A stretch of DNA of 64,000 nt from an uncultured Ruminiclostridium sp. (GTDB taxonomy: Bacteria > Bacillota > Clostridia > Oscillospirales > Ruminococcaceae): the NCBI GenBank assembly GCA_947627695.1, contig CANQXF010000010.1, positions 19,192 through 83,191 on the forward strand. Reading direction: 5' to 3'. Shown in pieces: positions 3,503-19,594 of this stretch (its first letter is position 1; each line of letters starts with the position of its first letter). Position numbers and translations under genes: made by a program. The notes under the pieces were generated by a model. It was given only the letters and a program-made list of their open reading frames with translations, was not told where the DNA came from and ran no database searches.

Positions 3503-4147
3503 TTTTCATTGTTTTTCACTCATGTCCTGTGTTATACTTCATAATAGCGAAAAATAGACGAGGGCTTGTGATTAGTATGTATCCCATGAGTGGGAAGATG
3601 TGCGGGGCAGGGGCGGCGAAGCCGCCTTTTGTTCGGGCGAAGCCCGAACAAAAGCACTGATTTTGCGGAGCAAAATCAGTGAGTCTGTGCGCCGGAGGCG
3701 CACAGACTGCGGCTTCGCCGCCCCGGACAAGCAGGCGTGCCGTTAAAAGTGCCAAGTGCGGAATAAATCGGTCAGCACCACTGACAGTTTACAGTGCAAA
3801 GTGCAGAGTACACAGTAAATTTATTTATAAGGTTTATTGTTTTGCTTTCACTATCTCGGTTGAATATGCTCTGACAAAGGCGATGCTTTTGCACCGCCTT
3901 TCACTTTTGTGTCCTGCATACCAGCCTCACGAGTGCGCCCCACCCTCCCACCCGCCACCTGTCCCCCTCACCTTTTCATTGTTTTTCACTCACGTTCTGT
4001 GCTATACTTCACAATAGCAGAAAAGGCCAAAAAGCGAAGCCGCCCCGCTATAAGAAAACCAGTGTTATCCGACGTCAGGGAGGCAAAACCTTTTCATTGT
4101 ATTTCACCCCACCCCCATGCTATACTCCATAATAGCAAAAAATAGGA
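3503..4147 (+). promoter_or_regulatory. Three copies of a ~55-bp promoter-like motif upstream of the phage-like cluster
   Basis: TTTTCATTGT(T/A)TTTCAC...TG(T/C)TATACT(T/C)CA(T/C)AATAGC at 3503-3557, 3973-4024, 4091-4147; extended -10 TGnTATACT; last copy runs into RBS AGGAGG. Confidence 0.65.
3610..3734. repeat. Composite REP-like element family B (GGGGCGGCGAAGCCGC...GCGGCTTCGCCGCCCC termini), copy 1
   Basis: Inverted termini enclosing variable hairpins; other copies at ~12613-12737, 33157-33271, 36751-36856, 53378-53486, 63519-63637. Confidence 0.8.
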
Positions 4148-4157
4148 GGCTGCGTAA

Positions 4158-4406
4158 ATGGTAGAAGATTTTATACTTTCAAATCAGAACAGGATCCTCT
4201 CCTTCGGCGAATACGTTTTAGAGAAGCTGGAGGACAAGGACGCCATGGACAAGGTAGCTGAAAAGGACCCCGAGAAGCTGGCGAGAGTGCTGAAGCTGCT
4301 TCTGGAATGGCTTGACAGCGCTCAGCCCAAGGCGGAAAGTCCCGCCCTGGCGGCAATAATCCGCGCTGTGGGCAAACGCGGCGAGGAGCAAAGCGATGAA
4401 TACTGA
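4158..4406 (+). CDS. Small protein in terminase small subunit position
   Basis: 82 aa, strong RBS AGGAGG, overlaps the terminase large subunit start; helical, no evident HTH. Confidence 0.55.
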   Translation: MVEDFILSNQNRILSFGEYVLEKLEDKDAMDKVAEKDPEKLARVLKLLLEWLDSAQPKAESPALAAIIRAVGKRGEEQSDEY

Positions 4407-5637
4407 AAAAGAAAAAACGTCCGCCCTGTCCCCGAAGCAGGAACAAACGATAGCTCTGCTGAAGGAGGACGGGCTGAAGCGGCTTAATATTTTAGAGGGA
4501 AGCGTGCGTTCGGGAAAAACGTACGTTTCCCTTATTTTATGGGCTTTCTGGATAGCGCTGAGGGGGAACGGGCGTTATCTTATGGCGGGAAAGACGCTGA
4601 ACACCTTGAAGCGGAACCTGCTTGAGCCCCTTGCTGAAATTTTCGGCGAGGAAAATTTCGCCTATTCCCTCTCAAAAAAGGAAGCGTTTTTGTTCGGTAT
4701 AAGACTGCACCTTGAGGGCTGCGCCGACAGCCGCGCGGAGGGACGCATACGGGGAATGACCCTTGACGGGGCGTACTGCGACGAGCTGACCCTGTTCAAC
4801 GAGGATTTTTTCTCAATGCTGCTGTCAAGGCTCTCCTCCAAGGGAGCAAAGCTGTTTGCCACCACCAACCCCGACCACCCCTGCCATTGGCTCAAGGCAA
4901 ATTATCTTGACCGAGGGGAGGAGCTTGACCTGCTGGATATCCACTTCACCCTTGAGGATAATCCCTACCTTGACCCCGCCTACGTCAGGGCGCTGAAAAG
5001 CGAGTACAAGGGCGTTTACTACGAGCGTTACATTCTTGGGAAATGGGTTGCGGCGGAGGGCTCTATCTACACCGACTTCAAGGACAGCCAGATAATGACC
5101 GAGGAGCAGACGAAGCAGGCGGAAGAAAAATGCGTCTTCACCGTTATGGGCGTGGATTTCGGCGGAAATCGCTCCGCCTCCGCATTTGTGCTTATAGGCT
5201 TTGACGCGGGATTTGAAACGTTGTATGTGCTGGACGAGCATTACGACAAGGAAAACCGTTCCGCAGAAAAGCTGATAAGCGACTTTACAGAAATTACTGA
5301 ACGCTGGTCGAAGGATAAAAAGCTGCGTGCGGCGTATTGCGACAGCGCGGAGCAGCTCCTTGTGAAGAGCTTTCGTCAATCGGTAACGCTACCTGTGAAA
5401 AACGCACTGAAAAATCCCATAAACAACCGTATACGAATGTTCTGCCGCCTTATGGCGTCTGACCGTATACGCGTAAGCTGCCGCTGTAAGGAGCTTATCA
5501 AGGCGATAAAGACCGCCGTCTGGGACAGCGGCTGCCTTTGCGACAGCAGACTGGACGACGGCACCACGAATATCGACTCGCTGGACGCCATGGAGTATGC
5601 GGCGGAGAGGTTTGAGAGGGAGATATTCAGGTGGTAG
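4396..5637 (+). CDS. Phage terminase large subunit (PBSX-like)
   Basis: 413 aa; Walker A LEGSVRSGKT, Walker B AYCDE, ATTNP coupling motif, nuclease GVDFG and DSLDAMEYA. Confidence 0.92.
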   Translation: MNTEKEKTSALSPKQEQTIALLKEDGLKRLNILEGSVRSGKTYVSLILWAFWIALRGNGRYLMAGKTLNTLKRNLLEPLAEIFGEENFAYSLSKKEAFLFGIRLHLEGCADSRAEGRIRGMTLDGAYCDELTLFNEDFFSMLLSRLSSKGAKLFATTNPDHPCHWLKANYLDRGEELDLLDIHFTLEDNPYLDPAYVRALKSEYKGVYYERYILGKWVAAEGSIYTDFKDSQIMTEEQTKQAEEKCVFTVMGVDFGGNRSASAFVLIGFDAGFETLYVLDEHYDKENRSAEKLISDFTEITERWSKDKKLRAAYCDSAEQLLVKSFRQSVTLPVKNALKNPINNRIRMFCRLMASDRIRVSCRCKELIKAIKTAVWDSGCLCDSRLDDGTTNIDSLDAMEYAAERFEREIFRW

Positions 5638-5689
5638 TTAGTTGGATAGTGGTTAGTAGCTGGTTGATTTGATTATCAGGTGGTTTCGT

Positions 5690-6380
5690 TTTGCTTTCAC
5701 GGGCTTGGTTGGGAAAGCTGTGCTTTGGGAGAACGGGCGGCACAGCTTTTCACTTTTGTGTCCTGCACACCAGCTTCACGTCTGCGCCCCACCCTCCCGC
5801 CCCCTTTGCTTGCTCCTCAACATATTTTTTCTCACAACTGCAAAACACTGAAGGCTCAAGCCTGCGGGCGGGAAAGCGTGTTTGCGGCTTTGCCGCAAAC
5901 AGCGGGTGGGACGCTGGTGTGAAGCTGGTGTGCACAACACAAAACATAAAGCCAACTCACCACATTTCCACTCTCTCAACATTGGTAAATGACCTTCCCT
6001 AACCGCACAACGCCGTGCCGCACGCTGCACGCCTGTGATAGCGACCCGCAGGGGCGCGGGACTAAACCTCGCAATTGCGAACGCCATAATCAGCACATTG
6101 AGAAGAAGTCGAGCAGGCGAATTTGACAAGGTAGGCTAAAAATAAAGTTTTTCCGGAATTCTTAAAACCGCCTTTTCCGAAAAAGCGGTTTAAGCTCGAA
6201 TGTTGCGGTTTTGCTTTGCAAAACTGCAACATTTGACTAGAAATCTGAAAAGCGAAGCTTTTCAGTTTCATGGGGGCTGGCCGCGCCGCATCCGCACGGT
6301 ACCGTGCAAAACCGTTACTAACATCTCCCGATTAGGCAGACATATAAATCAATTCCAAAAGGTACAACCTTTTCCGAAAA
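5690..6380. repeat. Long intergenic module, copy A (upstream of portal)
   Basis: Near-identical in blocks to 8165-8840; contains 41-bp imperfect inverted repeats 5754-5794/5904-5944 and a ~210-bp conserved block ending in hairpin CTTAAAACCGCCTTTTCCGAAAAAGCGGTTTAAG. Confidence 0.85.
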
Positions 6381-6484
6381 TTCGACATTGCCTTATCAAG
6401 CGAAACAAGATATAAACTACATCAAAAAAGCCCGTCTTGCCAAAGACAAAAACACATTCCGTTCAAGAAAGGAGACCAATTGAA

Positions 6485-7846
6485 ATGAACTTCAAAACCA
6501 TCTTCCCCCGCCTTTTCTCCGAGAAAAGCACCCCCGCGATCTCGATCGACAGCCTGACAGAAAAACACCTGTCCGAACACATTCCCGCCTGGAAAAACGT
6601 CTACGACGGCGAAACCCCTTGGCACTATGCCAGAAAGGGAGGACTTGACGGCGGCTACCGCCGCGTAAGAGGCATTTTCGCCGCAAGAGCTCTTTGCAGT
6701 GAGCTTTCCGCATTGTGCTTTTCTCAGCAGATGGACCTGCGCTTTTCCTCCCCCGACACAAAGGATCTCGTGGAAAAGGTCTTGCAGGAAAACGCCTTCT
6801 GGAGCTGCTTCCCGCTGTTTCTGGAAAAAATGTTTGCCCTTGGCGGCGGGGTAGTTAAGGTGTACGTTGAGGGCGAAAAGATACGCCTGAATTACGTCGG
6901 CGCAGAGGGCTTCGTCCCCACGCAGTACGATGAAAAGGGCGTTTATGGCGGAATAATCCTTTCCGCCGCCGCAAAGAACGGGGAAAATTACCTCCTTGCG
7001 GAAATAAACTCAAAGACCGACAACGGCTACACCGTCACCAACAGATTGTTCAAACAAAAAGGCGGTGAGTACAGGGAAGTCCCCCTGTCGGAGCTGTATC
7101 CTGAGCTTGAGGAGAGAACAGAGATAAACGGGCTGAAAAAGCCGCTTTTCGTATACTTTCGCCCTGCCTGCTCAGGGGACGGCCCGCTGGGAACTTCCGT
7201 TTACGCAAACTGCACGGACACGTTGGAAAGCCTTGACGTCGTTTTCGACAGCCTCCAGCGGGAATTTGTCCTGGGCAAAAAGCGGATAATCGTCCCCACC
7301 TCCGCCTTGCGTGGCGAGTACGGCAAGGACGGCAAGCTGCACAAATACTTTGACGAGCAGGACGAGGTGTATCAGGCGTTCTCCCCCGACGACAGGGAAG
7401 AACTGAAGATATACGATAACAGCGCACAGCTGCGTGTGGAGGAGCATAAGCAGGCGATAGAGCAGCTTCTGGACCTGCTTTGTATGCAGACGGGACTTTC
7501 GGCGGGCAGCCTTTCCTACCACAACGGAAATCCCGCCACCGCTACAGAAGTTACCGCCAGAAACGACAGGACGTTCCGCACAAAGACCGCACATCAGCAG
7601 CTTATCCGCGAGGGACTTTTGCAGGTGACGGAAAATATCGTACTGCTTGCCGTGCTGATGGGACAGCTTCCTGCCTCCGCAATGGAGGATAAGCCTGTGA
7701 TAACCTTCCCTGACAGCGTTTCCCGTGATAATACTTCCAAGATAGACAATGCGGTGAAAATGCTTTCTGCGGGAATTATCGACAAAAATCAAGCCCTTGG
7801 GGAGATCTACGGACTTACCCCCGAAGAGGCTGAAAATACCAAATAA
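6485..7846 (+). CDS. Phage portal protein (A118/SPP1 gp6-like)
   Basis: ATG at 6485 after AAGGAG; YFRP...LGTSVYANCTDTLESLDVVFDSLQREFVLGKKRIIVP, ATATEV motifs; follows terminase. Confidence 0.88.
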   Translation: MNFKTIFPRLFSEKSTPAISIDSLTEKHLSEHIPAWKNVYDGETPWHYARKGGLDGGYRRVRGIFAARALCSELSALCFSQQMDLRFSSPDTKDLVEKVLQENAFWSCFPLFLEKMFALGGGVVKVYVEGEKIRLNYVGAEGFVPTQYDEKGVYGGIILSAAAKNGENYLLAEINSKTDNGYTVTNRLFKQKGGEYREVPLSELYPELEERTEINGLKKPLFVYFRPACSGDGPLGTSVYANCTDTLESLDVVFDSLQREFVLGKKRIIVPTSALRGEYGKDGKLHKYFDEQDEVYQAFSPDDREELKIYDNSAQLRVEEHKQAIEQLLDLLCMQTGLSAGSLSYHNGNPATATEVTARNDRTFRTKTAHQQLIREGLLQVTENIVLLAVLMGQLPASAMEDKPVITFPDSVSRDNTSKIDNAVKMLSAGIIDKNQALGEIYGLTPEEAENTK

Positions 7847-7864
7847 GAAAGAGAGGAACTAACT

Positions 7865-8107
7865 ATGGAAGAGATCAGACAGGAACAGGAGATCGTTCAG
7901 ACCACGGCGGCAGAGGAGCAGACCGCTGCTCCCGACCCTATGGCGGAGATCAAGGAGGAGCTGAAAGTCATAAAGGAGCAGAACGAGGCGCTCAAAGCCG
8001 AGCTTGCCGCCCTGCGCACCCTCCCGCATTTCTCCGTACCGTCAACGCCTCCCGAAAATGCGGGAGAGGAGATGATAAAGGGAATATTCAGGAAGAGGAG
8101 GAGCTGA
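7865..8107 (+). CDS. Small coiled-coil protein, possible minimal scaffold
   Basis: 80 aa, RBS GAGGA, acidic/coiled-coil, located between portal and capsid. Confidence 0.45.
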   Translation: MEEIRQEQEIVQTTAAEEQTAAPDPMAEIKEELKVIKEQNEALKAELAALRTLPHFSVPSTPPENAGEEMIKGIFRKRRS

Positions 8108-8164
8108 AACAGTTGACAGTGTACAGTTGACAGTTGATAGTTAATTGAATTATATGGTTGTTTC

Positions 8165-8840
8165 TTTGGCTTTCACGGGCTTGGTTTGGCAGTTGTGATT
8201 TGGGAGAACGGGCGGCACAGCTTTTCACTTTTGTGCCCTGCATACCAGCTTCACGCCAGCGCCCCACCCTCCCGCCCCCTCTGCTTGCCCCTCAACATAA
8301 ATTTTTTCACAACATCAAAACGCTGAAGGCGCAAGCCTGCGGGTGGGAAAGCGTGTTTGCGGCTTTGCCGCAAACAGCGGGTGGGACGCTGGCGTGAAGC
8401 TGGTGTGCACCACACAAAACTGAAAAATACTTCCGCCGAAGGCGGAAGTACGATCCAACATTGCTTGAATTGCCCTAAAGGCAATTCATATTGCTTCGCA
8501 ATACCGCAATATTGGACACCGCCTGCGAAATCAATATGCTCCTTCCCTAACCGCACAACGCCGTGCCGCACGTTGCCCGCCTGTGGTAGCGACCCGCAGG
8601 GGCGCGGGACTAAACCTCGCAATTGCGAACGCTATAATCAGCACATTGAGAAGAAGTCGAGCAGGCGAATTTGACAAGGTAGGCTAAAAATAAAGTTTTT
8701 CCGGAATTCTTAAAACCGCCTTTTCCGAAAAAGGCGGTTTTAAGCGGTGTGGCAGCGCCACAACCGCACGGTACCGTGCAAAACCGATACAAACATTTCC
8801 CGATTAGGCAGACATAAAAAATAAACAAAAAGGTACACCT
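8165..8840. repeat. Long intergenic module, copy B (upstream of capsid)
   Basis: Matches 5690-6380; inverted arms 8229-8269/8379-8419; has an extra inserted hairpin module at ~8428-8517. Confidence 0.85.
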
Positions 8841-8955
8841 TTTCCAACCCCACCATCACCACCACTTAAAGCATCCGCTTTAAGATAGAAAACCCCCTGC
8901 AACGCAGGAAAAACACCCCTGCTAAACAGGGAAAACAACGAAAGGAGAACACCCT

Positions 8956-9849
8956 ATGAACACAACATCTTACGCAAAGCTCTTTCAGGGCGAACTGGAC
9001 CGCCAGGTGACCGAGGGAGCGACCTCAGGCTGGATGGAGGACAACGCCGATCAGGCGGTATATGCGGGAGGAAAGGAAATAAAGCTCCCCGCAGTATCCA
9101 CCCAGGGACTGGGCGATTACGACCGTGACGAGGGCTATAAGGGCGGAGCCGTGACCTTTAGCTACCAGACCTGCACCATGACCAAGGACAGAGGCAGACG
9201 CTTCCGTATCGACGCCATGGACGTAGCTGAAAGCGACTTCCAGCTCACTGCCGCAAAGGTAGCCGAGGAGTTCCAGAGAACAAAGGTGATACCTGAGATC
9301 GACGCTTACCGTTATTCCACTCTGGCGGGAAAGGCGAAGATAACCCAGGATTACACCCCCGACGCCTCCACCGTTTACAGCAAGCTGCTGGAACAGCTTG
9401 GTCAGGTGTGTGACGTTACAGGCGGAGAAACACCCGTTGTCATCAGCATTTCCCGCCCCGTTTACGACCTGCTGATGAACAGCGCCGAGCTTAACAGGAC
9501 CCTTGACGTGACCCAGTTCAGCCAGGGGGATATCACCCTTGAGGTAAAGTCGATAAACGGCGCCGTTATCATTCCCGTGCCCTCCGCCAGAATGAAGAGC
9601 AAGTACACCTTCAGCGCCGACGGCGACGGCGGCTTTACTCCCGCCGAGGACGCAAAGAGCATTAACTGGATAATCTGCCCCAGGACAGCTCCTGTCGCCG
9701 TTTCCAGAACGGACAAGATAAAGGTGATCCCTCCCGAGCAGAACCAGTTTGCCGACGCATGGGACATTGATTACAGAAAGTATCACGACCTGTTCGTAGG
9801 CGACAGCGCGGCGCAGGCAGTGGCGGCGTCTATCGACCAGGCTGTGTAA
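8956..9849 (+). CDS. Phage major capsid protein
   Basis: 297 aa; YAKLFQGELD, GGKEIKLP, GLGDYDR, DRGRRFRIDAMDV, IPEIDAYRYS, YRKYHDLFV typical of Firmicute siphophage capsids. Confidence 0.88.
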   Translation: MNTTSYAKLFQGELDRQVTEGATSGWMEDNADQAVYAGGKEIKLPAVSTQGLGDYDRDEGYKGGAVTFSYQTCTMTKDRGRRFRIDAMDVAESDFQLTAAKVAEEFQRTKVIPEIDAYRYSTLAGKAKITQDYTPDASTVYSKLLEQLGQVCDVTGGETPVVISISRPVYDLLMNSAELNRTLDVTQFSQGDITLEVKSINGAVIIPVPSARMKSKYTFSADGDGGFTPAEDAKSINWIICPRTAPVAVSRTDKIKVIPPEQNQFADAWDIDYRKYHDLFVGDSAAQAVAASIDQAV

Positions 9850-9892
9850 ATCCTGAATGACCCGTTTGTAATTATCAGAAAGGGGCGGAAAA

Positions 9893-10237
9893 ATGATCCT
9901 TACCATTGAAGAGTATAAAAATATGGGATTTGAGGGCGGGGAGGACGAAAGCGCCTGTGAAAAGGCGATCACAAGGGCGGAAAACCTTGTGGCGCTCCTT
10001 TGCGGCGGCAGTCTTGATAGCTTCGGCGAAAGCGCAGTCCCTTGCTTAAAGCAGGCGATAGCCGCCCAGGCGGAGGAGTATTTGCTGAACGGCGGTCAGC
10101 CCGTGTCGGGAAAAACCACGGTGGGCGACTTTTCCTATTCCGCCGAGGAAAGCGGCGGCACTGCCGTAAGCCCGCTGACTATGACCGTCCTGAAGCTGGG
10201 CGGACTTTACTGCTGCGCTGTGGAGGGAAGAAGATGA
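9893..10237 (+). CDS. Head-tail connector/adaptor protein
   Basis: 114 aa directly after capsid; YxxMGF, KQAIAAQAEY, TVGDFSYS pattern. Confidence 0.7.
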   Translation: MILTIEEYKNMGFEGGEDESACEKAITRAENLVALLCGGSLDSFGESAVPCLKQAIAAQAEEYLLNGGQPVSGKTTVGDFSYSAEESGGTAVSPLTMTVLKLGGLYCCAVEGRR

Positions 10238-10566
10238 ATATCCTGCCTATACCCAGACGCCTGCTCACCGACAGTGCCGTTCTGCTTGTCCCCGAGGGAA
10301 AGGAGACCTTTGGGGACAGATACGGCGAGGTGGAGCTGGAAAACGTTCGCATCTGCTTTGAGAGGAAAGTCCGCCTCAGCGGGCACGACACTGTTCCCTC
10401 TTCGGGAGGAACGCTGTATTTCGACTGCCGTAATTCCTCCCCCATAAATACCCGCTTTGACACCAAGATGAAGCTGAAGATAGGTGAAAACCGCTTTCAC
10501 ATAGCCGCCGCAAAGCCTGTCAAGGGGGAAAGTGAGGTCCATCATTGGGAAATAACCTTTGTGTAA
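10234..10566 (+). CDS. Head closure / A118-type minor capsid protein
   Basis: ATGA overlap with upstream stop; IPRRLLTDS...LYFDCRNS...VHHWEITFV pattern. Confidence 0.65.
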   Translation: MNILPIPRRLLTDSAVLLVPEGKETFGDRYGEVELENVRICFERKVRLSGHDTVPSSGGTLYFDCRNSSPINTRFDTKMKLKIGENRFHIAAAKPVKGESEVHHWEITFV

Positions 10567-10575
10567 GGAGCAGAT

Positions 10576-10905
10576 ATGGATATCGTAACAGTGACGCTGA
10601 ACCTCTCCTCCACCCTGAAAAAGCTGGGAATGAAAGCGGTAAAGGCGCAGCTTGCCCTGTCCCAGACCGCCTTTGAGGACTGCAACAAATACTGCAAGGT
10701 GGACACGGGAAAGCTGCAAAACAGCGGCAAGGTGGACAAGGTGACGGGAATAATGACCTGGACCGCCCCTTACGCCCGAAACGCCTACTACACCGGTGCG
10801 CCCAACAAAACAAAAAATCCCCTTGCCTCTCTTATGTGGGCGCACAAGGCGGCGGAGGTGAACAGGGAGAAGTGGCGGGGGATAGTCGCGGACAGTTTGA
10901 AGTGA
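10576..10905 (+). CDS. A118-type minor capsid / tail completion protein
   Basis: 109 aa; DCNKYCKVDTGKLQNS, WTAPYARNAYY, WAHKA motifs. Confidence 0.7.
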   Translation: MDIVTVTLNLSSTLKKLGMKAVKAQLALSQTAFEDCNKYCKVDTGKLQNSGKVDKVTGIMTWTAPYARNAYYTGAPNKTKNPLASLMWAHKAAEVNREKWRGIVADSLK

Positions 10906-10925
10906 AAAGCAAACAGGCGGGAAAA

Positions 10926-11312
10926 AGTGTACAGTGTACAGTTGACAGTTGACAGTTGTGGAGTCCGCTTCGCGGACGGATTAGGATTGCCGCCTGCAAA
11001 TCAGCACCTGTCACTTTAAATCCGTTTTTCGCCAAAGGCGAAAAACTCCACAACTTTACACTGTACACTGTCAACTGAGAAATAGTGTACAGTTGACAGT
11101 TGTGGTATCCTGTACTTTCGGCAAGCCGAAAGTACGATCCAACATTGCTTGGATTGCCCTAAAGGCAATCCATATTGCTCCGCAATACCGCAATATTGGA
11201 CGCCTTCGGCGATGGATTAGGATTGCCGTCTGCAAATTTGTACCTGTCATTTCAAATCCGTCCGCGCAGCGGACACCACAACTGTACACTGTCAACTGTC
11301 AACTGTCAACTG
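10926..11312. repeat. Two tandem heptamer-bounded cassettes (family A)
   Basis: (GTGTACA/GTTGACA)n-GTTGTGG...CCACAAC-(TGTCAAC/TGTACAC)n with internal hairpins; followed by GGGGG RBS and ATG at 11329. Confidence 0.85.
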
Positions 11313-11328
11313 CTAAATTGGGGGTTTT

Positions 11329-11700
11329 ATGTTCAACACATCAACACTTATGAAAGATCTTACGTCCTTGCTGTCACAGAGCCTTTCCCTTACCGTCAGC
11401 GCTGACAGGGCGGACGAGGAGTGCATGACCCTGCGGTTTTGCGGCGGGGATTATGACGAGGTATTTCTGGACAGCGGGAAAAAAGCAAGGATACCCCTTT
11501 TGCTGCTGTCAAAGAGCATTGACGGCGAAAAGGCACTGAAGGAGCTTTGCAAAGCGCTGGATATTCTGGAAAAACAGCCGCCCGACGGCGTTATGCAGGT
11601 GAAGCTCTCCTCCCTGCCCGAATTGGTGGACAGGGGCGAGGACGGCGCGCTGTATGAGGCGCAGGCAGAGCTTTTCTGCTATCAGACTGCCGAGGGGTGA
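11329..11700 (+). CDS. Tail terminator-like / minor capsid protein
   Basis: 123 aa; position before tail tube; acidic C-terminal DRGEDGALYEAQ. Confidence 0.55.
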   Translation: MFNTSTLMKDLTSLLSQSLSLTVSADRADEECMTLRFCGGDYDEVFLDSGKKARIPLLLLSKSIDGEKALKELCKALDILEKQPPDGVMQVKLSSLPELVDRGEDGALYEAQAELFCYQTAEG

Positions 11701-11711
11701 AAGGAGTTTTT

Positions 11712-12146
11712 ATGATTTTGCTGAACAATGAGATAAAAGCGTATCTCAAAATAGGCGGCAACGACGAGGAGCCTGTCTGGGGCGATCTGGGCAAGGCGTT
11801 CAAGTCGGTGTCCCAAAGCCTTGGCGAGAGCAAGTACACCGCCGCATATCTTGCGGACGGCGGCTTTTCCTCAAGCGAGGTGACGGGGCTGAGCTTTCAG
11901 CTCACCCTGACGGGGGATTATATGAAAAACGACCCCGTGATAAAGTATCTTTTCTCCGAAGCCGTCCTTTACGGCACGGGAGAAGCCCGCAAAAGCAAGC
12001 TGAAATTAGTCCGTGACGGGACGCAGATACTCTGGAGCGTCACTATGACCAAGATATCCGAGGACGGCGGCGACGCGGACGAGCCTGACGAGGTAACGCT
12101 TGAGCTTTCGGGCAACGGAAAGCCCGCCGTTTCGGAGGCTGAATGA
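11712..12146 (+). CDS. Major tail (tube) protein
   Basis: ATG at 11712 after AAGGAG; WGDLGKAFKSVSQS...YLADGG...TGLSFQLTLTGD...LSGNGKP pattern. Confidence 0.7.
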   Translation: MILLNNEIKAYLKIGGNDEEPVWGDLGKAFKSVSQSLGESKYTAAYLADGGFSSSEVTGLSFQLTLTGDYMKNDPVIKYLFSEAVLYGTGEARKSKLKLVRDGTQILWSVTMTKISEDGGDADEPDEVTLELSGNGKPAVSEAE

Positions 12147-12484
12147 TGAAATTGCGCCGAAAAACGTTCACCCAGCATATACGGCTGGGCAAAACAAGGC
12201 TGACGGCGGAGATAGACCCCGAAATGGCGCTTTGCTCGATGAAAGCGGCGGCGGAGCGTGCGGGGCAGCTTGAGGACCCCGCCGCCCTCTGCGGTGAGGC
12301 GGCGCAGCTTTTCACGGATATTTTCGGGGAGGAAAATGCAAGGGCGTTGCTCTCCTTTTATGGTGGCAAGGCGGGGGAAACGGCGCTGCGCCTTATGCCC
12401 TTGCTGCTGGGGAAGATACTCCGCAAGGCGGCAAGGCGGGAGAAGAGGGAGCAGAAGAGAATAGCGAGGACGTTTGTAAGGTGA
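12143..12484 (+). CDS. Tail assembly chaperone (putative)
   Basis: 113 aa, ATGA overlap; IFGEENARALLSFYGG; lies after tail tube. Confidence 0.55.
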   Translation: MMKLRRKTFTQHIRLGKTRLTAEIDPEMALCSMKAAAERAGQLEDPAALCGEAAQLFTDIFGEENARALLSFYGGKAGETALRLMPLLLGKILRKAARREKREQKRIARTFVR

Positions 12485-12744
12485 AGAAGCGGGGGACGCT
12501 GAATAAGGAGCGAGTTATCGTTTTTTAATGCAATGTGCTTGTGAATTTTGACCGTTAAGCGTTCGGAATATGTTGTTTTGCCTTGTGCTTATCTTTATGC
12601 CTGCTCCTACGAGGGGCGGCGAAGCCGCCTTTTGTTCGGGCGAAGCCCGAACAAAAGCACTGATTTTGCTTCGCAAAATCAGTGAGTCGGAGCGCCTTTG
12701 GCGCTCCGACTGCGGCTTCGCCGCCCCTGACAAGCAGGCGGGAA

Positions 12745-12901
12745 AGTTAAAAGTGAAAAGTGCAAAATACACAATAGTGGAATTCGCTCCGCAGATGGAT
12801 TAGGATTGACTCCTGCAAATCAGCACCTGTCATTTCGAATCTGTTTTTCGCCAACGGCGAAAAACTCCACAACTATAAACTATCAACTATTAACTGTCAA
12901 C
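12745..12901. repeat. Heptamer-bounded cassette (family A), adjoining family B copy 12613-12737
   Basis: GTTAAAA-GTGAAAA-GTGCAAA...CCACAAC-TATAAAC-TATCAAC-TATTAAC-TGTCAAC. Confidence 0.8.
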
Positions 12902-12947
12902 TGCAACCCTTGCTGCTTTGCAGCAAGGGTTGCACGGGGGTGATACT

Positions 12948-13562
12948 TTGAAGAATTTGTGGAAATATTTCGGCAGGGGACTTCCTCCCTGCAAGGCGGG
13001 AGCGTTCTCCGTCAACACCAATGCGGGGGACGTGCTGAGAGCGTTATCTGTGATAGACGAGGACAGCCTTTGGGAAGACGTAAAGGTGAAATATGCCCTG
13101 CGGCTTTTGCTGAAGCCTTTGGGGAGGATCGCCGCTTTCTTCCTGCCGAAAAGAAAAAAGGCGGAGCTCCTGAACAAGGCGCTTTCCACTCTTTCCCCCA
13201 AGGGCGGAAAAGGCGGCGGCAGGCGCACCCTCTCCCTCACTTGCGACAGCGGACTTATCTATACCGCACTGCTCCAAAGCTACGGCATTGATATTCTGCG
13301 GGAGAAGGTGGATTTTCGGCTGCTGCCCCTGCTGGCGGCGGGAGCAGGTGAAGATACCCTGCTCCACCGTGTCGTTGAGATTCGCACGGCGGAAATTCCC
13401 CCTGCGGGAAAAGCTCCCGCCGAATATATCAGTCGACTTTCCCGCCTGAAGGCAATATACGCCCTGCCCGAGGAAAGCGGCTTTCAGAACGGAATGAACA
13501 GGCTTTTTGACAGCCTTGCCCGCGGCGGCGCAGAAAGGAACTCACAATGGACGGACAAATAG
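12948..13562 (+). CDS. Bacteriophage Gp15-like tail chaperone
   Basis: TTG start after GGGGG; DSGLIYTALLQSYGIDIL...EDTLLHRVVEIR matches A118 gp15 pattern. Confidence 0.7.
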   Translation: MKNLWKYFGRGLPPCKAGAFSVNTNAGDVLRALSVIDEDSLWEDVKVKYALRLLLKPLGRIAAFFLPKRKKAELLNKALSTLSPKGGKGGGRRTLSLTCDSGLIYTALLQSYGIDILREKVDFRLLPLLAAGAGEDTLLHRVVEIRTAEIPPAGKAPAEYISRLSRLKAIYALPEESGFQNGMNRLFDSLARGGAERNSQWTDK

Positions 13563-14296
13563 TATATCAGGTGAAGGTGGACAGCAGCAGAGTCCCCTCC
13601 GACCTGAACATGGCGGCAAGCCTGATAAATAACGGAACCAAAACGCTGGTGACCTTGGGTCAGCAGGCGGCAGCGAGGATAGGCAGCGCCCTTTCCTCCT
13701 TCTTCGCCGCAGAGGGGAACAAAATGAACGGTATGCTTTCATCTCTTTCAGGTGGCTTTAATATGCTGTCGGGAAGCACGGCGTCTGCTGCGGCGTCCCT
13801 TTCCCCTCTTACTCAAGGTATAAATTACCTGCTGTCTCTTGATCTGAACAGGCTGCTGTCCTTCTTCACACAGATGGGCAGTGCGGCCGTCAGCAAGGGG
13901 GCGGCGCAGGTCGCGTCTATCGGACTTGGCACTATGACGAAAAAAAGAAACGGTATGCAGTCTCAGCTTAATTCCGTGCCCACCTACCGAAGCGGCAAGG
14001 AGTATATCGACAGGGATAAGTACGCCTATCTCCATAAGGGAGAGGCGGTGCTTACCGCTGCGGAAAACCAGACCTTCCGTTCCCTGGGCGGACTGGAGGG
14101 ACTGTCCCTGCTGTGGGAGGGCGGAACGACGCCAATGCCTGCCCCTCCTCCCTCTCAGGGAGAAATAAGCGTACCTGTTCCCCAGCCGCAGAACGTGAAC
14201 GTGACCGTCGAGCTGGACGGCTACCAGATGGCAAAGGTGATGGCGACTGCCACCAACGAGCTGAACAGACAGCTTAATACGAGAGTAGTCAGGTAG
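13547..14296 (+). CDS. Miniature tape measure protein
   Basis: 249 aa; N-terminal DGQIVYQV, Ala/Ser/Gly-rich core, C-terminal YAYLHKGEAVLTAAEN and VTVELDG motifs typical of TMP ends. Confidence 0.65.
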   Translation: MDGQIVYQVKVDSSRVPSDLNMAASLINNGTKTLVTLGQQAAARIGSALSSFFAAEGNKMNGMLSSLSGGFNMLSGSTASAAASLSPLTQGINYLLSLDLNRLLSFFTQMGSAAVSKGAAQVASIGLGTMTKKRNGMQSQLNSVPTYRSGKEYIDRDKYAYLHKGEAVLTAAENQTFRSLGGLEGLSLLWEGGTTPMPAPPPSQGEISVPVPQPQNVNVTVELDGYQMAKVMATATNELNRQLNTRVVR

Positions 14297-14298
14297 AT

Positions 14299-14890
14299 GA
14301 CAGTTAAAAGTTAAGAGTGCAAAGTGCACAGTTGTGGATTTTTTGCTGCGCAAAAAAGATTAGGATTGCCGCCTGCAAATCAGCACCTGTCAATCAAAAT
14401 CCGTCCGCGAAGCGGACACCACAACTTTACACTGTACACTGTACACTTTACACTGTCAACTGCCAGCGGGCGTTTTGCCTTGTGCTTATCTTTATGCCTG
14501 CTCCTACGAGGGGCGGGACAGTTAAAAGTTAAGAGTGCAAAGTGCACAGTTGTGGATTTTTTGCTGCGCAAAAAAGATTAGGATTGCCGCCTGCAAATCA
14601 GCACCTGTCAATCAAAATCCGTCCGCGAAGCGGACACCACAACTTTACACTGTACACTGTACACTTTACACTGTCAACTGCCAGCGGGCGTTTTGCCTTG
14701 TGCTTATCTTTATGCCTGCTCCTACGAGGGGCGGGACAGTTAAAAGTTAAGAGTGCAAAGTGCACAGTTGTGGATTTTTTGCTGCGCAAAAAAGATTAGG
14801 ATTGCCGCCTGCAAATCAGCACCTGTCAATCAAAATCCGTCCGCGAAGCGGACACCACAACTGTCAACTGTACACTGTACACTGTCAACT
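14299..14890. repeat. Tandem 218-bp repeat (~2.7 copies) of a family A cassette
   Basis: Unit starts GACAGTTAAAAG at 14299, 14517, 14735; first two units identical. Confidence 0.92.
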
Positions 14891-14907
14891 GCTAAATTGG
14901 GGGTTTT

Positions 14908-15261
14908 ATGACAACAGATATTTATTTCGGGGACTACAAGCTCCCCTCGCTGATAAGCTATTCTGCGGACAGAGAGTGCCGCAACACAAAAAAGGAGTAC
15001 AACGCCGACGGCGACTTGCTGATAGATATGGTCTCCCGCAAGCTGAAGCTGACCCTTTCGCTGGGAAGATTGACATCGGAGCAGATGAAAGAGATACAGA
15101 CGGCGACACAGCCCGTGTTCTTTCCCGTCACCTTTTTCGACCCGCTGAAAGGGGAGACCTCCACCGCATATTTCCACCTGTCCGAACAGCCCGCACAGCT
15201 TGTCCCGTCAGGCGGGGGCGGAGCTTTCGACAGCCTGAAGCTGGTGCTGGAGGAAAAATAA
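14908..15261 (+). CDS. Distal-tail-like phage protein
   Basis: 117 aa after TMP; GDLLIDMVSRKLKLTLS, VTFFDP pattern. Confidence 0.6.
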   Translation: MTTDIYFGDYKLPSLISYSADRECRNTKKEYNADGDLLIDMVSRKLKLTLSLGRLTSEQMKEIQTATQPVFFPVTFFDPLKGETSTAYFHLSEQPAQLVPSGGGGAFDSLKLVLEEK

Positions 15262-15299
15262 CCGCCGCTTGCACGGCGTAAAACGTCAACGGAGGAACG

Positions 15300-17243
15300 A
15301 TGCTTAATATAACCGACAAATTCAGGGAGCTTGCCACGGCGGGCGGCAGACAGCCCTTCTGCGTCATCAGGGCGGGGGAAAAGACCTTCCTTGACGACAG
15401 CATAAAGTCCTTTCAGTTTCAGGAGGTGATATTCCCTGAGGAGCTGACCTTTGGCGCGGCCTGCTCGGGCAGATTTCACTTTGAGCTGGAAACGGCGGAG
15501 AATATCCCCCTTTCCGCCGAGATAAGACCGTATATCGGCTTCGGGGAATATTCCGAGGACGCAGAGCTTTGCCCGCTGGGAGTTTTTTGCATATCAAAGC
15601 GTTACAGGCGGAGGAACAGCTATTCCGTCACCTGTTACGACAGAATGTACCGCCTTGAGGACAAGTATAAAAGCGAGCTTGCCTTTCCCACCACCTCTGA
15701 CAAGCTGTTGGAGGAGATATGCGAAAAGTACGGTCTGGAATTTCAGGGGGACGCAGGCAGTAACTCCTGCGAAAAAATGCCCGCAGACGAAAGCGTAAGG
15801 AATATTCTGGGCTATCTGGCGGGACTGGAGGGAGCCTGCGCAGTTTTCGACAGATACGGCAGGCTTTGCTTCAGAAAGATGACGGACAGCGGCTTTCGCA
15901 TAACGCGGAGCAATTACGCCTCTCTTGATTTGAAGCAGGACCCTATGACCGTTGAGAAGATAGAGATAGACAACGGCGGGGACGAGCTGATAGAAAAGGG
16001 GGAAGGCACCAAGCTGGGGACGTACAGGATATACGACCCCTTTGCAAGTCAGCGTACCGCAGAAAAGCTGTACACTATGTACGGCGGCTTCACCTATTAT
16101 GGGCTGGAACTGGATATGCAGGGACTTCCCTTCCTTGAGGCGGGGGATATAATCACCGTGCAGAACGATTGCGACGACGGGCTTTTCACCGCCGTCATAG
16201 GCGAGCTTAACTTCACCTACAACGGCAGCTTCTGGCTCACCCTTTCCTCCAAGTCCAAAAATCCCGTGCAGGATTCGGAGGACGCTGAAACGCAGGAGGA
16301 GCAGTTCCAGCAGATGACCAAGTCCCTCAGCACCGTATATTACAATTATCGCAGCGAAAGGGACGTCACTGTGGGCGAAAATCTCACAAGCGTTGCAGAG
16401 GTGGATCTTGAGGTGCTGGAGGAGACCTCGGCGGTGCTGGCGGCTCAGCTTGTGGCAGAGCCGAAAAGCGACTGCCTGCTCACCCTTTCATACACGGTGG
16501 AGGATCTGGAAACGCCTCCTGAGATAACGGCCTCGCTGAAAGAGGGGGAGCATTTCCCTATCTGCCTGCACAACTTCTTTTCCGCCATTCCCGCAGGGTA
16601 TATCACAGTAAGGATATACGCCAAAGCTGAGGGAGGAACGGTGCTGTTCAGAAAGGGAAAGATAATCGCCACCGTAAGCGGTCAGCACCTTGCGGAAAAC
16701 GCTCTTAACCGTTCGCCCAACAGGACGATATATCAGAGCTTCGCACCCTTTGCGATACAGGCATCGAAATTTCAGTTCCCTATGCAGGAGCATCTTCTTC
16801 CCTCGCTTCAGATACCGGTGGGAATTACGCCGAAAGAAAGCGTTGCTTTGCGGATGTACGAATACAAGGTCTGCTTCGGGATCTGCGACAGCCTTATAGT
16901 GCCGAAAAGCGTACAAAAAGCGGAAATATATTCTCAGGACAACGTGATGTACGCCCGCCTTACCTTTTTCAACCCCATATTCACACAGGACGCCGCCCTG
17001 CTTGCCCCCGCCTTTAAGATACTTGCCGTATTCACCGAGGAGCAGGAGGAGCATAGCGTGACTGACGCAGTATGGGACGGCAACACCGAACTCGTTCTCA
17101 CCGTGGACGGAATGTTTGTGGGAGCTTCGCAGATACGGGTGCTTTATGAAAGCGCAAAGGGCGATATGACAGACGAATTTTCGGGTGAAAAATTAGACGA
17201 CTTTGATATCACCGCCGAGGCGGGAAAGGAGAATGTAGTATGA
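15300..17243 (+). CDS. Phage tail/baseplate protein
   Basis: 647 aa; LTFGAACS, PLGVFCI, VTCYDRMYRL, GLPFLEAGDIITV motifs of clostridial tail proteins. Confidence 0.7.
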   Translation: MLNITDKFRELATAGGRQPFCVIRAGEKTFLDDSIKSFQFQEVIFPEELTFGAACSGRFHFELETAENIPLSAEIRPYIGFGEYSEDAELCPLGVFCISKRYRRRNSYSVTCYDRMYRLEDKYKSELAFPTTSDKLLEEICEKYGLEFQGDAGSNSCEKMPADESVRNILGYLAGLEGACAVFDRYGRLCFRKMTDSGFRITRSNYASLDLKQDPMTVEKIEIDNGGDELIEKGEGTKLGTYRIYDPFASQRTAEKLYTMYGGFTYYGLELDMQGLPFLEAGDIITVQNDCDDGLFTAVIGELNFTYNGSFWLTLSSKSKNPVQDSEDAETQEEQFQQMTKSLSTVYYNYRSERDVTVGENLTSVAEVDLEVLEETSAVLAAQLVAEPKSDCLLTLSYTVEDLETPPEITASLKEGEHFPICLHNFFSAIPAGYITVRIYAKAEGGTVLFRKGKIIATVSGQHLAENALNRSPNRTIYQSFAPFAIQASKFQFPMQEHLLPSLQIPVGITPKESVALRMYEYKVCFGICDSLIVPKSVQKAEIYSQDNVMYARLTFFNPIFTQDAALLAPAFKILAVFTEEQEEHSVTDAVWDGNTELVLTVDGMFVGASQIRVLYESAKGDMTDEFSGEKLDDFDITAEAGKENVV

Positions 17244-18655
17244 TAAAGGGAAAAAGCACCGTACAGCTTTTCGATGCAAAGACGGGAAAGCAGATTTCCA
17301 GTCAGACAAATTCCAATATGGTAACAAATGCGATAGAGACAATCGCGAATAATAAAGACGATCTGGATCTTCTCAAGTGGGAAAGGATATCTGCCGGTGA
17401 TGTTTCAAACCTGGTGTCCGTCTCTCCCCTGCCTGCGATGATGCCCATCGCACAAAAGGCAATGTCGGGGGTTCTGCTGTGGGACGAGAATATAACTGAG
17501 GATCCCTCAATAGTTATCAAGCCTGATAAAATACACGAGGTAGGGCACGCAGGATCGCCTTACAGCGGCACGGATATTTACAAAGGCAGCTACAACGAAA
17601 ACGAAAGCGGGGCAATAGAGGGCGGTTATCGTCACGTCTGGGACTTTGACACCGACAAGGCAAACGGCACGATAAAATGCATTTCCCTCACATCACAAAA
17701 CGGCGGGAACATAGGGTATCATCTGTACAGCGACTCCAGCACAAAGCCGATTTATAATCAGAAATATTTCCATTCCTCAAACTATTATATTTCCCCTCAC
17801 TATAACAATAATTATGTGGAATATACGGGAGATACGAAGGGAAGATGCTTTTATATAAAGAAGCTGGAAGGTGAAGGGATCAGAATATATAAAAGGCTTA
17901 ACACAGATCTGTATTACAGCGACGTTCATCATCTGGCAAGTATACTTTCGATAACTCAGGAGCGCACTCCCGCTATGGAAAAGGCGGTGCGTCTTCCCAT
18001 AACACTGATAAGCAGTAATGATTCGGTGTATGTCCACGACGGAAAAATAAATGAAATAAACGTTACGGGTACTACCCTTCGTCATCTGACTTTTGATCTT
18101 GAGGGAAAGAACCTTTCCGACAAAACAGTAAATCTGCCGTTTTCAATAAGGCACATTTTCTCGCCTGCCGTATACAGGGACGGATATTATTACTGCGTAG
18201 GACAGAATGAAACCAACGGAGAAGTAAAAAAAGTAGACTCCGAGGGCAACCTGATATCCACCATATTACCTGACGTTCAAAAAAAATCTGTTGTTGCGTC
18301 GGGCATTGCGATGAATGATTTCTCGGGAGAAATTATATACTCCTTTGTCAGCACCAGCTATGTCAGTGAGTTGAACGTTCTGATAATAGACAGCGAGGAC
18401 CACAGTCATTGGACGACGACAGGCTCTATGGTGACGCCTTATTCGGGAACGCATAGCAGCCCATATCAAGCTCAGGTCATACAGCTTGATAATATGAAAA
18501 CGCCGTTTTTGCTTGCCAGCGACGGTTACTATGCTTTCAAAGCATATCCGTTCATAAATTCGTGCTATCTTGCCACGATAAACAATCTTCAAACCCCTAT
18601 CGTCAAAACCTCCGCCCAGACGATGAAGATAACCTACGAAATTTACGACGAATAA
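17240..18655 (+). CDS. Tail fibre / receptor-binding-like protein
   Basis: 471 aa, ATGA overlap; conserved ends (NMVTNA, GSYNENESG, VWDFDTDKANGTI; YLATINNLQTPIVKTSAQTMKITY) around an aromatic beta-rich core; visibly more AT-rich than upstream genes. Confidence 0.6.
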   Translation: MIKGKSTVQLFDAKTGKQISSQTNSNMVTNAIETIANNKDDLDLLKWERISAGDVSNLVSVSPLPAMMPIAQKAMSGVLLWDENITEDPSIVIKPDKIHEVGHAGSPYSGTDIYKGSYNENESGAIEGGYRHVWDFDTDKANGTIKCISLTSQNGGNIGYHLYSDSSTKPIYNQKYFHSSNYYISPHYNNNYVEYTGDTKGRCFYIKKLEGEGIRIYKRLNTDLYYSDVHHLASILSITQERTPAMEKAVRLPITLISSNDSVYVHDGKINEINVTGTTLRHLTFDLEGKNLSDKTVNLPFSIRHIFSPAVYRDGYYYCVGQNETNGEVKKVDSEGNLISTILPDVQKKSVVASGIAMNDFSGEIIYSFVSTSYVSELNVLIIDSEDHSHWTTTGSMVTPYSGTHSSPYQAQVIQLDNMKTPFLLASDGYYAFKAYPFINSCYLATINNLQTPIVKTSAQTMKITYEIYDE

Positions 18656-18659
18656 GGGC

Positions 18660-18688
18660 TTGCTTTTTCGGCGGGATTGTGTTATACT
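18660..18688 (+). promoter_or_regulatory. Sigma-A promoter of tRNA-Arg
   Basis: TTGCTT-17 bp-TATACT with extended -10 TG. Confidence 0.7.
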
Positions 18689-18730
18689 GTTAAAGCAGTA
18701 AAAAAAGGGATCGTTCAGCGATCCCGATAA

Positions 18731-18805
18731 GCCTCCATAGTTAAACGGATATAACAAACCCCTCCTAAGGGTTAGTTATCGGTTCGATTCCGGTTGGGGG
18801 TGCCA
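18731..18805 (+). tRNA. tRNA-Arg(CCT)
   Basis: Cloverleaf: acceptor GCCTCCA/TGGGGGT, anticodon arm AACCC-CTCCTAA-GGGTT, T-loop GGTTCGATTCC, encoded CCA. Confidence 0.93.
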
Positions 18806-18811
18806 CTGCAT

Positions 18812-18848
18812 TAGGAAAAATCCCCTCGTTTACGAGGGGATTTTTTTG
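18812..18848 (+). terminator. Intrinsic terminator after tRNA (near-duplicate at ~18980-19017)
   Basis: AAAAATCCCCTCGT-TT-ACGAGGGGATTTTTTT. Confidence 0.8.
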
Positions 18849-19228
18849 CAAATGGGAAAAGGGCTCAGACTTCGCCTTTGGCTCGTCTTTGCCTCTTTTC
18901 CTTGCACGATTTTTTCTTGAATTGCCCTTAAGGCAATTCATTTTGCTTCGCAAAACCGAAAAAACCGTGGTGTGGCATTAGGAAAAATCCCCTCGTTTCA
19001 CGAGGGGGATTTTTTGCAAATGGGAAAAGGCTTCGTCCGTCGCCTGACGGCTCGTCCTCAGCTCTTTTCATTGCACAGCCCCGTTTGGATTGCCCTAAAG
19101 GCAATCCATTTTGCTTACGCAAAACCACGGGATTGGACACGTTGTGCGGTCAAGTGGGAGGTGCTTGTCGGTCGGTGGCTCGTCCTCGTTTTTTCTTTTT
19201 TGCTTGCTCAAAGCCGAGAGCTAATATT

Positions 19229-19257
19229 AAAAAGCCCCCTCCTGGAGGGGACTTTTT
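19229..19257 (-). terminator. Terminator downstream of rnpB
   Basis: AAAAAGCCCCCTCC-T-GGAGGGGACTTTTT hairpin with A/T tails. Confidence 0.7.
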
Positions 19258-19260
19258 GGT

Positions 19261-19594
19261 GACCTCATCTGTAAGCCGAGTTCTGTCTTGTGCGAACATT
19301 TATCTACCTCCAAGGTCGCCCTTGGAGTCAAGCCGCCTATATGGGAGCACGCCGAGCAGGCGTGTTGTTCTCCGTACCAATCGGCGTTGCATCGGGTAGG
19401 GTTTACATGGCAGCGCAGTCTCCTGCGCTCCGGTGAGCTCTTACCTCGCCTTTCCATCCTTACCGCAAAATTGCGGCGGTATATCTCTGTTGCACTTGCC
19501 CTAAGGTCGCCCTCGGCTGCCGTTAGCAGCTACCCTGCTCTGTGATGCTCGGACTTTCCTCACGGATATCTCCCCGCGTTCGCACGGTGAAGTC
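19261..19594 (-). ncRNA. rnpB: RNase P RNA
   Basis: Minus strand contains GAGGAAAGTCC, AGTGCAACAG and 3' ACAGAACTCGGCTTA; P1 GACTTCA/TGAGGTC; upstream TTGACA-17-TACAAT promoter (19630-19602). Confidence 0.93.

Follow-up and report, generated by a model that had tools for sequence, protein, structure and literature searches.

A 14.5-kb head, tail and packaging gene cluster in an uncultured Ruminiclostridium, a strong candidate for a phage-derived gene transfer agent encoded at several loci

The window analysed here is a stretch of 64,000 nucleotides that forms part of contig C10 of an uncultured Ruminiclostridium genome (G000; 2.70 Mb in 67 contigs). At positions 4158-18655 it carries 16 co-oriented open reading frames (ORFs) on the plus strand that encode head, packaging and tail proteins, none with an internal stop. 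We consider that this block is probably the operon for heads, tails and packaging in a particle system that derives from a phage, is spread over several loci, has been passed on vertically and is built like a gene transfer agent (GTA), with an A118/PBSX-like siphovirus as its ancestor. Judged from its genes, the block ranks as a strong GTA candidate and not a dying prophage. The evidence is that cluster and host chromosome have diverged in step, with purifying selection acting on the cluster, and that a regulator gene and a lysis cassette elsewhere in the genome stand behind the same operator/promoter signature as the cluster itself.

The genes of the cluster are as follows, all on the plus strand and in window coordinates.

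4158-4406, plus strand: 82-residue all-helical protein in the small-terminase (TerS) position, overlapping the start of terL; the name is positional
4396-5637, plus strand: large terminase TerL (PF03237/PF17289, Terminase_6N/6C; phrog_2; TIGR01547, PBSX family)
6437-7846, plus strand: portal of the A118/SPP1 type (PF05133, SPP1_portal; phrog_533, E = 1e-101; TIGR01542, E = 7e-75)
7865-8107, plus strand: 80-residue coiled-coil protein in the scaffold position, with weak coiled-coil matches only
8956-9849, plus strand: major capsid protein (MCP; phrog_422, E = 4e-97)
9893-10237, plus strand: head-tail adaptor (phrog_541)
10234-10566, plus strand: connector, Minor_capsid_1 (PF10665; phrog_793)
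10576-10905, plus strand: connector, Minor_capsid_2 (PF11114; phrog_556)
11329-11700, plus strand: 123-residue protein in the tail-terminator position, with no family match and 37-98% identity in relatives
11697-12146, plus strand: tail tube (phrog_820; NF047353, tube_lmo2291)
12143-12484, plus strand: 113-residue protein in the tail-chaperone position; the name is positional and there is no family match
12918-13562, plus strand: Gp15-family tail protein (PF06854; phrog_706)
13547-14296, plus strand: 249-residue protein in the tape-measure position; the name is positional and there is no family match
14908-15261, plus strand: 117-residue ring protein with a tail-tube fold, in the distal-tail position (phrog_1194)
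15300-17243, plus strand: tail-tip/baseplate protein of 647 residues (phrog_6616, E = 6e-33; phrog_9680, host range and adsorption)
17240-18655, plus strand: candidate fibre/receptor-binding protein of 471 residues (phrog_19291)

The portal, Minor_capsid_1 and Minor_capsid_2, Gp15 and the lmo2291-type tube identify the block as an A118-like siphovirus module. TerL scores above the cut-off of the PBSX-family model TIGR01547, matches PDB entry 5OE8 (E = 1e-42) and contains the Walker A motif GSVRSGKT, while the portal, for all its E-value against TIGR01542, falls under the equivalog cut-off of that model. The MCP matched no NCBIfam model at E = 0.01, including that of the N4-gp56 capsid family. 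The 82-residue TerS-like protein matched no family and has no recognisable DNA-binding domain; its structure model has a mean confidence (pLDDT) of 59, which is below use for a fold search. The position of the coiled-coil ORF is kept in the orthologous cluster L002, where it encodes 90 residues. No SPP1-gp7-like head protein, protease or scaffold of normal size was found among the cluster genes. The protein in the tape-measure position has 228-284 residues in 11 related clusters and 132 in G086, and was undetected in G099.

A first-pass annotation of this DNA, made from the letters and a list of ORFs, had described a complete, co-oriented and uninterrupted set of head and tail genes in about 14.5 kb, and this description holds. 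Its names for the terminase, portal, capsid, connectors, tube, Gp15 and fibre are borne out by family matches, while small terminase, chaperone and tape measure are names by position only. The protein that it labelled distal tail turned out to have a tail-tube fold: the AlphaFold model (pLDDT 81) retrieved tail-tube, baseplate and neck chains in Foldseek, with TM-scores of 0.5-0.59, and among these matches is the neck chain 6TOA_G of RcGTA, the GTA discussed below.

The cluster is embedded among host genes. As the annotation had stated, its direct flanks are a host gene for a membrane protein (DUF2079), on the minus strand, and a tRNA-Arg gene. Upstream there is also a gene for a pyridoxal-phosphate enzyme of Cys/Met metabolism (labelled metY), and the order downstream is tRNA-Arg(CCT), rnpB, an ECF sigma/anti-sigma pair, spoIIR, rlmL and a class A penicillin-binding protein.

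18731-18805, plus strand: host tRNA-Arg(CCT), whose junction with the fibre gene is kept in G114, G113 and G070
19256-19595, minus strand: host RNase P RNA gene, rnpB

The flanks were annotated over window positions 1-35468, and in this neighbourhood we found no integrase, replication or lysis gene, so that the corresponding claim of the annotation, made for the whole window, stands for the annotated part. The ECF sigma/anti-sigma pair beside rnpB was considered as the regulator of the cluster and rejected, as the promoter is of the sigma-A type with an extended -10 element.

Further evidence comes from comparison with related genomes. Four species whose synonymous divergence (dS) from one another runs from about 0.2 to more than 1 have kept each of the 16 ORFs intact. 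Between G000 and its sister species G114, the ratio of nonsynonymous to synonymous divergence (dN/dS) is 0.015-0.16 in 15 genes, with TerL at 0.02, and 0.28 in the fibre, and dS is approximately 0.08-0.30 in the 15 genes and 0.44 in the fibre; the host flanks give dN/dS of 0.03-0.15 and dS of 0.07-0.22, so that dS in the cluster equals that of its surroundings. Against G113 and G070, dN/dS is 0.08-0.48 where dS was computable, and dS is about 1 in element and flanks alike, with similar amino-acid divergence. The fibre evolves fastest of all the cluster genes (80% identity to G114 versus 92-100% for the others, the divergence being patchy along the protein), and the tail tube is among the best conserved, its 87% identity to L002 (G113) and L044 (G070) being the maximum for the cluster in that comparison.

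A tree of the element was built from the concatenated TerL, portal, MCP, tube, tail-tip and ring proteins of 14 genomes. It recovers every well-supported clade of the host tree, which is based on the single marker valS and, as throughout, on metagenome-assembled genomes (MAGs), and the pairwise distances of element and valS are correlated (Mantel r = 0.87, p = 1e-4). The valS gene is anomalous for G113, being 99% identical to ours versus about 77% in neighbouring host genes, and the placement of G113 therefore uses its flanks. We note that this valS (window 57904-60528 versus G113:C6:141251-143872) has pbp1 and rlmL among its neighbouring host genes, which like the element are approximately 75-80% identical; this suggests either a recent recombination between the two rabbit-gut species or a chimeric MAG contig.

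The full set of structural genes, from the 82-residue gene to the fibre and with no more than structural and packaging functions, was found in 15 of 108 species of the genus, namely in G000 and in G114, G113, G070, G084, G081, G086, G099, G101, G045, G024, G077, G014, G051 and G075. Thirteen of these 14 further carriers have a tail tube with 55% identity or more, and in the remaining one, the incomplete genome G101, the MCP is 68% identical. Gene boundaries are identical across the 15 species despite differing loci. The junction between fibre and tRNA-Arg is common to G000, G114, G113 and G070, and in deeper lineages the cluster occupies other housekeeping loci. In G113 (L002), where it is a compact cluster of about 11.7 kb without repeat-filled gaps, pgm, GH130 and pyk genes abut the first and last genes; in G045, one side has genes for a LuxR-type regulator and DUF2589 proteins, and the other side has the gene for an ECF-S component together with gltX/glnS and lgt; in G086, a glycosyltransferase gene lies on one side and tyrS and pth on the other. 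One neighbour gene is shared by G024 and G045, and another by G014 and G051. In the four carriers with annotated flanks (G000, G113, G045 and G086), where the cluster is flanked by housekeeping genes, no gene for integration, replication or excision adjoins it, and no att-like direct repeats were noticed. In the nearest non-carriers the neighbourhood of rnpB is rearranged, with neither the tRNA-Arg gene nor a remnant of the cluster there. In a sample at the level of the order, the MCP had matches at E = 1e-80 in only 5 of 401 genomes (G000 and four others), and the family is therefore narrow. Since the element and host trees are congruent, the patchy distribution is best read as repeated loss. 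In one MAG, G051, the tube gene is present twice, as are the activator and holin described below (contigs C48, C70; C19, C21), which is either a duplication of the system or two strains binned together.

We take these results to show that the cluster has been inherited vertically, with purifying selection on all of its genes. The first-pass annotation had proposed a host-maintained particle in place of a decaying prophage, and had suggested looking for the cluster at the same locus in relatives, comparing gene and species trees and computing dN/dS; locus, trees and substitution rates all support its proposal. It had also named a pattern that would speak against this, a patchy distribution together with an integrase-bearing full prophage in close relatives. 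The distribution is indeed patchy, and no integrase-bearing full prophage of this lineage was found in the relatives or in IMG/VR.

The first gene of the cluster is preceded by an operator/promoter signature, which was present in all nine clusters inspected. It consists of the repeated half-site TKCAN-N5-TKCAS, with the half-sites 10 nt apart, followed 10 nt after the second half-site by an extended -10 element (TGnTAnnnT). In G000 there are three copies upstream of the cluster.

3507-3538, plus strand: operator/promoter copy 1, CATTGTTTTTCAC-N10-TGTTATACT, a strict motif match at C10:22698
3977-4008, plus strand: operator/promoter copy 2, with repeat DNA between copies 2 and 3
4095-4126, plus strand: proximal operator/promoter (copy 3), 32 nt 5' of the first start codon

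The proximal operator reads TTTTCATTGTATTTCAC-N10-TGCTATACT. The strict pattern has six matches in the 2.7-Mb genome versus approximately 0.1 expected from order-2 Markov simulations, and the pattern without the -10 constraint has 12 versus approximately 2. The signature precedes three units in G000: the structural operon, an activator gene followed by addBA, and a holin-GH25 lysis cassette. No LexA (SOS) box was found upstream of the cluster or of the activator, with one mismatch allowed, and wiring of this system to the SOS response was rejected. Further copies of the motif lie at window 35484-35515 (minus strand), C7:88365 (minus strand), C6:98014 (plus strand) and C9:15404 (minus strand); three of them aim into the 3' ends of convergent genes, and the C9 copy precedes a gene for a 205-residue factor of the sigma-70 family.

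35484-35515, minus strand: stray motif copy, antisense into a GDSL-lipase gene

The activator gene encodes 159 residues and lies on contig C4 directly 5' of addB-addA, preceded by the operator. Its product matches phrog_36 (E = 5e-23) and phrog_248, annotated as a transcriptional activator (E = 1.5e-6), and gives weak matches to DUF1492 and sigma-70 region 4. The gene lies only 17 nt upstream of addB-addA (C4:36258-43800), with which it is probably co-transcribed. Fifteen of 15 carriers have the activator beside addB, versus 2 of 21 non-carriers (Fisher p = 2e-8, a statistic that ignores phylogeny); the 21 are those non-carriers with enough flank, and include the five closest to the carriers, all without the activator at addB. 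Activator and cluster have thus been gained and lost together across species. The operator precedes the activator in G000, G114, G113 and G070, and in most of the deeper lineages an operator variant is found further upstream of a canonical promoter. The position of the activator, kept in all carriers, would link the induction of particles to the enzyme that processes double-strand ends.

The lysis cassette, on contig C6, encodes a holin (PF05105, Phage_holin_4_1, E = 1.5e-40) together with a GH25 muramidase that carries an SH3 domain (E = 2.6e-29). It stands alone behind the operator among host genes, including that for fructose-bisphosphate aldolase. The same operator lies ahead of orthologous holins in ten related genomes and is absent from holins embedded in prophages. 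The genome of the system is therefore divided among several loci, with regulator and lysis genes away from the structural operon and under what we infer, as to binding, to be common control. The speculation in the earlier annotation that lysis of the mother cell in a spore former could substitute for lysis genes is unneeded, because the genome has, at another locus and behind this same promoter signature, a dedicated cassette of holin and endolysin. Two further genomes, G049 and G020 (L166, L170, L309 and L315), have kept the addB-linked activator and the operator-bearing holin and have no MCP homologue; these may have lost the structural operon recently, or had it replaced.

A split relative of the cluster, which has lost both tail tube and tape measure and which we term type (b), is present in some 40 further species (loci L004-L043 and L045; for example L004:7993-15108). 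It comprises the portal, an MCP 59-66% identical to that of G000, two adaptors, the tube-fold ring protein, the tail-tip protein and usually the fibre, in one 7-kb operon at a fixed site: rpiR, the operon, a conserved esterase-like gene and then phoH-ybeY. It has diverged to much the same degree as the host genes on either side. In the ten type (b) genomes searched, no homologue of the tail tube was found, and the TerS-like/TerL pair (31-37% and 56-61% identical, respectively) lies at a separate locus (L119-L126), so that the 82-residue protein remains paired with terL even here. The sequence TGCAG-N5-TGCAG-N8-10-extended -10 precedes the type (b) operon in all nine loci, out of ten, for which the promoter region was available, and it also precedes the TerS-like/TerL pair in five of the eight loci shown; as read from the motifs, this promoter has the same architecture as the operator/promoter of the long-tailed cluster.

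Phage relatives of the cluster are distant. The closest MCPs of isolated phages are at most 46% identical, and phage phiSemix9P1 encodes a gp7-type head protein, a 200-residue protein in the scaffold position and a tape measure of 1129 residues. Scans of IMG/VR with single proteins gave no matches. A profile scan of IMG/VR returned a few copies of the long-tailed cluster, some of them classed there as viral and some disrupted by insertion sequences (IS), and phages that have the MCP alone in common, at up to 62% identity. Two of the copies (L197:7872-17721 and L200:2048-12070) have a truncated terL or tail-tip gene, with inserted genes that resemble an IS-like gene on contig C36 of G000; from their sequences, we read these as copies of the cluster in decay.

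The coding parts of the cluster are unique in the genome, whereas repeats make up 77-100% of the five intergenic gaps; these repeats occur tens of times in the genome, on as many as 15 contigs. No ORF has been struck, as the first-pass annotation had observed. The gaps are listed here without strand.

5638-6436: repeat-filled gap, 99% of which consists of repeats present elsewhere in the genome
8108-8955: repeat-filled gap
10906-11328: repeat-filled gap
12485-12917: repeat-filled gap
14299-14883: 2.7 tandem copies of a 218-bp repeat, from the stop of the tape-measure gene to the next start

An ORF at 12570-12803 was rejected as a gene, being made of repeats. Gene spacings are nearly equal in G000 and G114, the repeat insertions being common to both; the insertions are therefore older than the split of these species, and selection went on afterwards. 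In G114 (L001) the distance from the start of the tape-measure gene to that of the next gene is 438 bp shorter, or about two 218-bp units, and the repeat arrays thus appear to be still changing. Over window 3300-19300, terminator-like hairpins in the gaps are mostly on the minus strand, and those on the plus strand lack good T tails; no strong plus-strand terminator was found in the repeat-filled gaps. Judging from these hairpins, the insertions may halt antisense, and not sense, transcription of the operon.

Four known systems invite comparison. RcGTA is encoded by a head-tail-packaging cluster of about 12-15 kb without integration or replication genes, and is inherited vertically under purifying selection. 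Our cluster shares with it a TerS-like protein without evident DNA-binding domain, a short tape measure, a short non-contractile tail and, at other loci, lysis genes together with an activator of its own (compare GafA). The two differ in having no overlap in sequence families, the present cluster being of the A118/PBSX type by Pfam, PHROG and NCBIfam; we found no homology to RcGTA g2-g15, and the sole likeness at the level of fold is that of the tube-fold protein to the RcGTA neck chain. The host here is a Gram-positive spore-former, the distribution in the genus is patchy, and the function is a predicted one. The regulator resembles phage late activators and lies 5' of addBA, in place of a CtrA/GafA cascade.

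PBSX of Bacillus subtilis is likewise found in a Firmicute, has a large terminase of the same family, and makes defective particles, which are filled with host DNA and set free by a holin and lysin of its own. It differs in being encoded by one contiguous locus of about 28 kb, with repressor, late sigma-like activator and lysis genes, and in having a contractile tail. The cluster described here gave no match to a sheath family, has TerL as its sole PBSX-family protein, and has its regulator on C4 and its lysis genes on C6, and it is not a defective prophage of the PBSX type.

The closest published case in gut Clostridia is FpGTA of Faecalibacterium prausnitzii, for which particles and their DNA content of about 8.5 kb were shown experimentally (PMC12946183). 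Both have a host among the gut Clostridia, structural and lysis genes at separate loci amid host genes, and a TerS without DNA-binding domain, and the short-tailed form of FpGTA is resembled by the tube-less type (b) relatives. FpGTA differs in its capsid of the N4-gp56 family and its podovirus-like build, whereas our cluster has a tail tube, Gp15 and a gene in the tape-measure position; compared by family annotation of the MCP, the cluster falls outside the FpGTA lineage. The lack of an N4-gp56 match, together with the encoded tube and tape measure, points to a domestication that looks to have been independent of FpGTA. A further GTA candidate, in Coprocola, consists of a 14-kb core (terS, terL and structural genes) and a separate holin-endolysin cluster of about 3.6 kb, with evidence from read coverage of the particle fraction (10.64898/2026.07.08.737213). 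By description, which is the basis of our comparison, the layout is the same; the host family is another, and no shared operator or activator is described. With respect to both FpGTA and the Coprocola candidate, it should be kept in mind that the present cluster is known from its genes. What is new here is the explicit regulon (operator, activator and lysis cassette) and the evolutionary series towards tail loss, GTA architecture itself being already known.

If the block does belong to a GTA, the system might work as follows. The activator would bind the operator and stimulate its own gene together with addBA, and would induce the structural operon as well as the lysis cassette in a subset of the cells. 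The 82-residue TerS-like protein and TerL would fill capsids with DNA without sequence specificity, to give short-tailed particles with a tail of perhaps 35-40 nm (an estimate from the 249-residue tape measure). The particles would be released by holin/endolysin lysis and would attach to related cells via the fibre, whose evolution is several times faster than that of the other genes. A more far-reaching proposal, which is possible and which we make only tentatively, is that an old and independent domestication of an A118-like phage led to a true multi-locus GTA; that its activator was wired into addBA, co-inducing particles and the processing of double-strand ends; and that the relatives record a stepwise reduction of the tail, from a tape measure of 284 residues to one of 132 residues, to none, and to the tube-less two-locus form of about 40 species.

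The main alternative to a GTA is a PBSX-like killer particle, or phibacin, which would kill competing strains by adsorption of its tail, the packaged DNA being an undelivered by-product. In its favour, the large terminase is a PBSX-family protein, the fibre and tail tip have diversified more quickly than the other proteins, as strain-specific killing predicts, and the very short tape measure might not support ejection of DNA; the same caveat has been raised for FpGTA by its authors (PMC12946183). We nevertheless think this explanation unlikely. TerL (with the dN/dS of 0.02 given above), the portal and the TerS-like gene are constrained as strongly as the tail genes or more so, and the TerL and TerS-like pair is kept as a separate locus in the split relatives, which argues that DNA packaging matters. 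Moreover, the tail is non-contractile, unlike that of PBSX, and the activator is linked to the recombination genes addBA. The strong constraint on TerL and portal and the retention of the packaging locus in the reduced relatives lead us to favour a function that needs the packaged DNA.

It is very improbable that the block provides the structural part of some mobile element, be it a satellite, a segmented phage or a capsid-forming island, that moves with the help of genes elsewhere. The congruence with the host tree and a dS equal to that of the flanks speak against horizontal movement, the flanks consist of core genes with no mobility gene or att-like repeat among those examined as above, and a complete tail is encoded, unlike in capsid-forming islands. 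These weigh more with us than the variation of the locus between sub-clades, the viral classification of some copies in IMG/VR and the standing of capsid-forming satellites as a known confounder (10.64898/2026.07.08.737213). The idea of an inert prophage remnant, a recent deletion derivative that decays neutrally and is intact by chance, is scarcely credible: the block adjoins a tRNA gene, has been invaded by repeats, is patchily distributed and has IS-disrupted copies in the IMG/VR contigs L197 and L200, but its 16 ORFs are intact in four species with dN/dS well below 1 and dS as in the flanks, its gene boundaries do not vary among the 15 species in spite of their different loci, its tree follows that of the host, and its conserved promoter co-occurs with a separate regulator and lysis cassette.

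Several points also weigh against the interpretation as a GTA that we prefer. Relatives of the MCP build heads of T=7 size, which bears on the question whether a particle has room for the cluster in full. The TerS-like and tape-measure proteins are candidates by position only, and we infer the putative binding of the activator to the operator from their co-occurrence alone. The operator copies at C7:88365, C6:98014 and window 35515 face no gene. A holin orthologue was not found at E = 1e-8 in five of the carriers (G081, G045, G024, G014 and G075). The repeat insertions of 0.4-0.85 kb might hamper transcription of the operon in this genome. Finally, with carriers in so few of the 108 species many losses are implied, and the locus varies between sub-clades.

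GTA-type packaging has been reported in Oscillospiraceae and Ruminococcaceae of the gut, mostly from loci yet to be named (PMC12946183). Phage-like particles that package bacterial DNA at random have recently been shown to be common in these families, and the genes behind them are known only for Faecalibacterium. The present analysis offers the parts list of another, independent lineage, in the form of a structural operon, an activator, an operator and a lysis cassette, and the operator signature provides a simple way to find the scattered parts in other genomes. The natural series from long-tailed to tube-less particles bears on how viruses become tools of their hosts and, if the proposed reduction of the tail is true, it would supply missing gene sets for GTA-type packaging in gut Oscillospiraceae-like bacteria.

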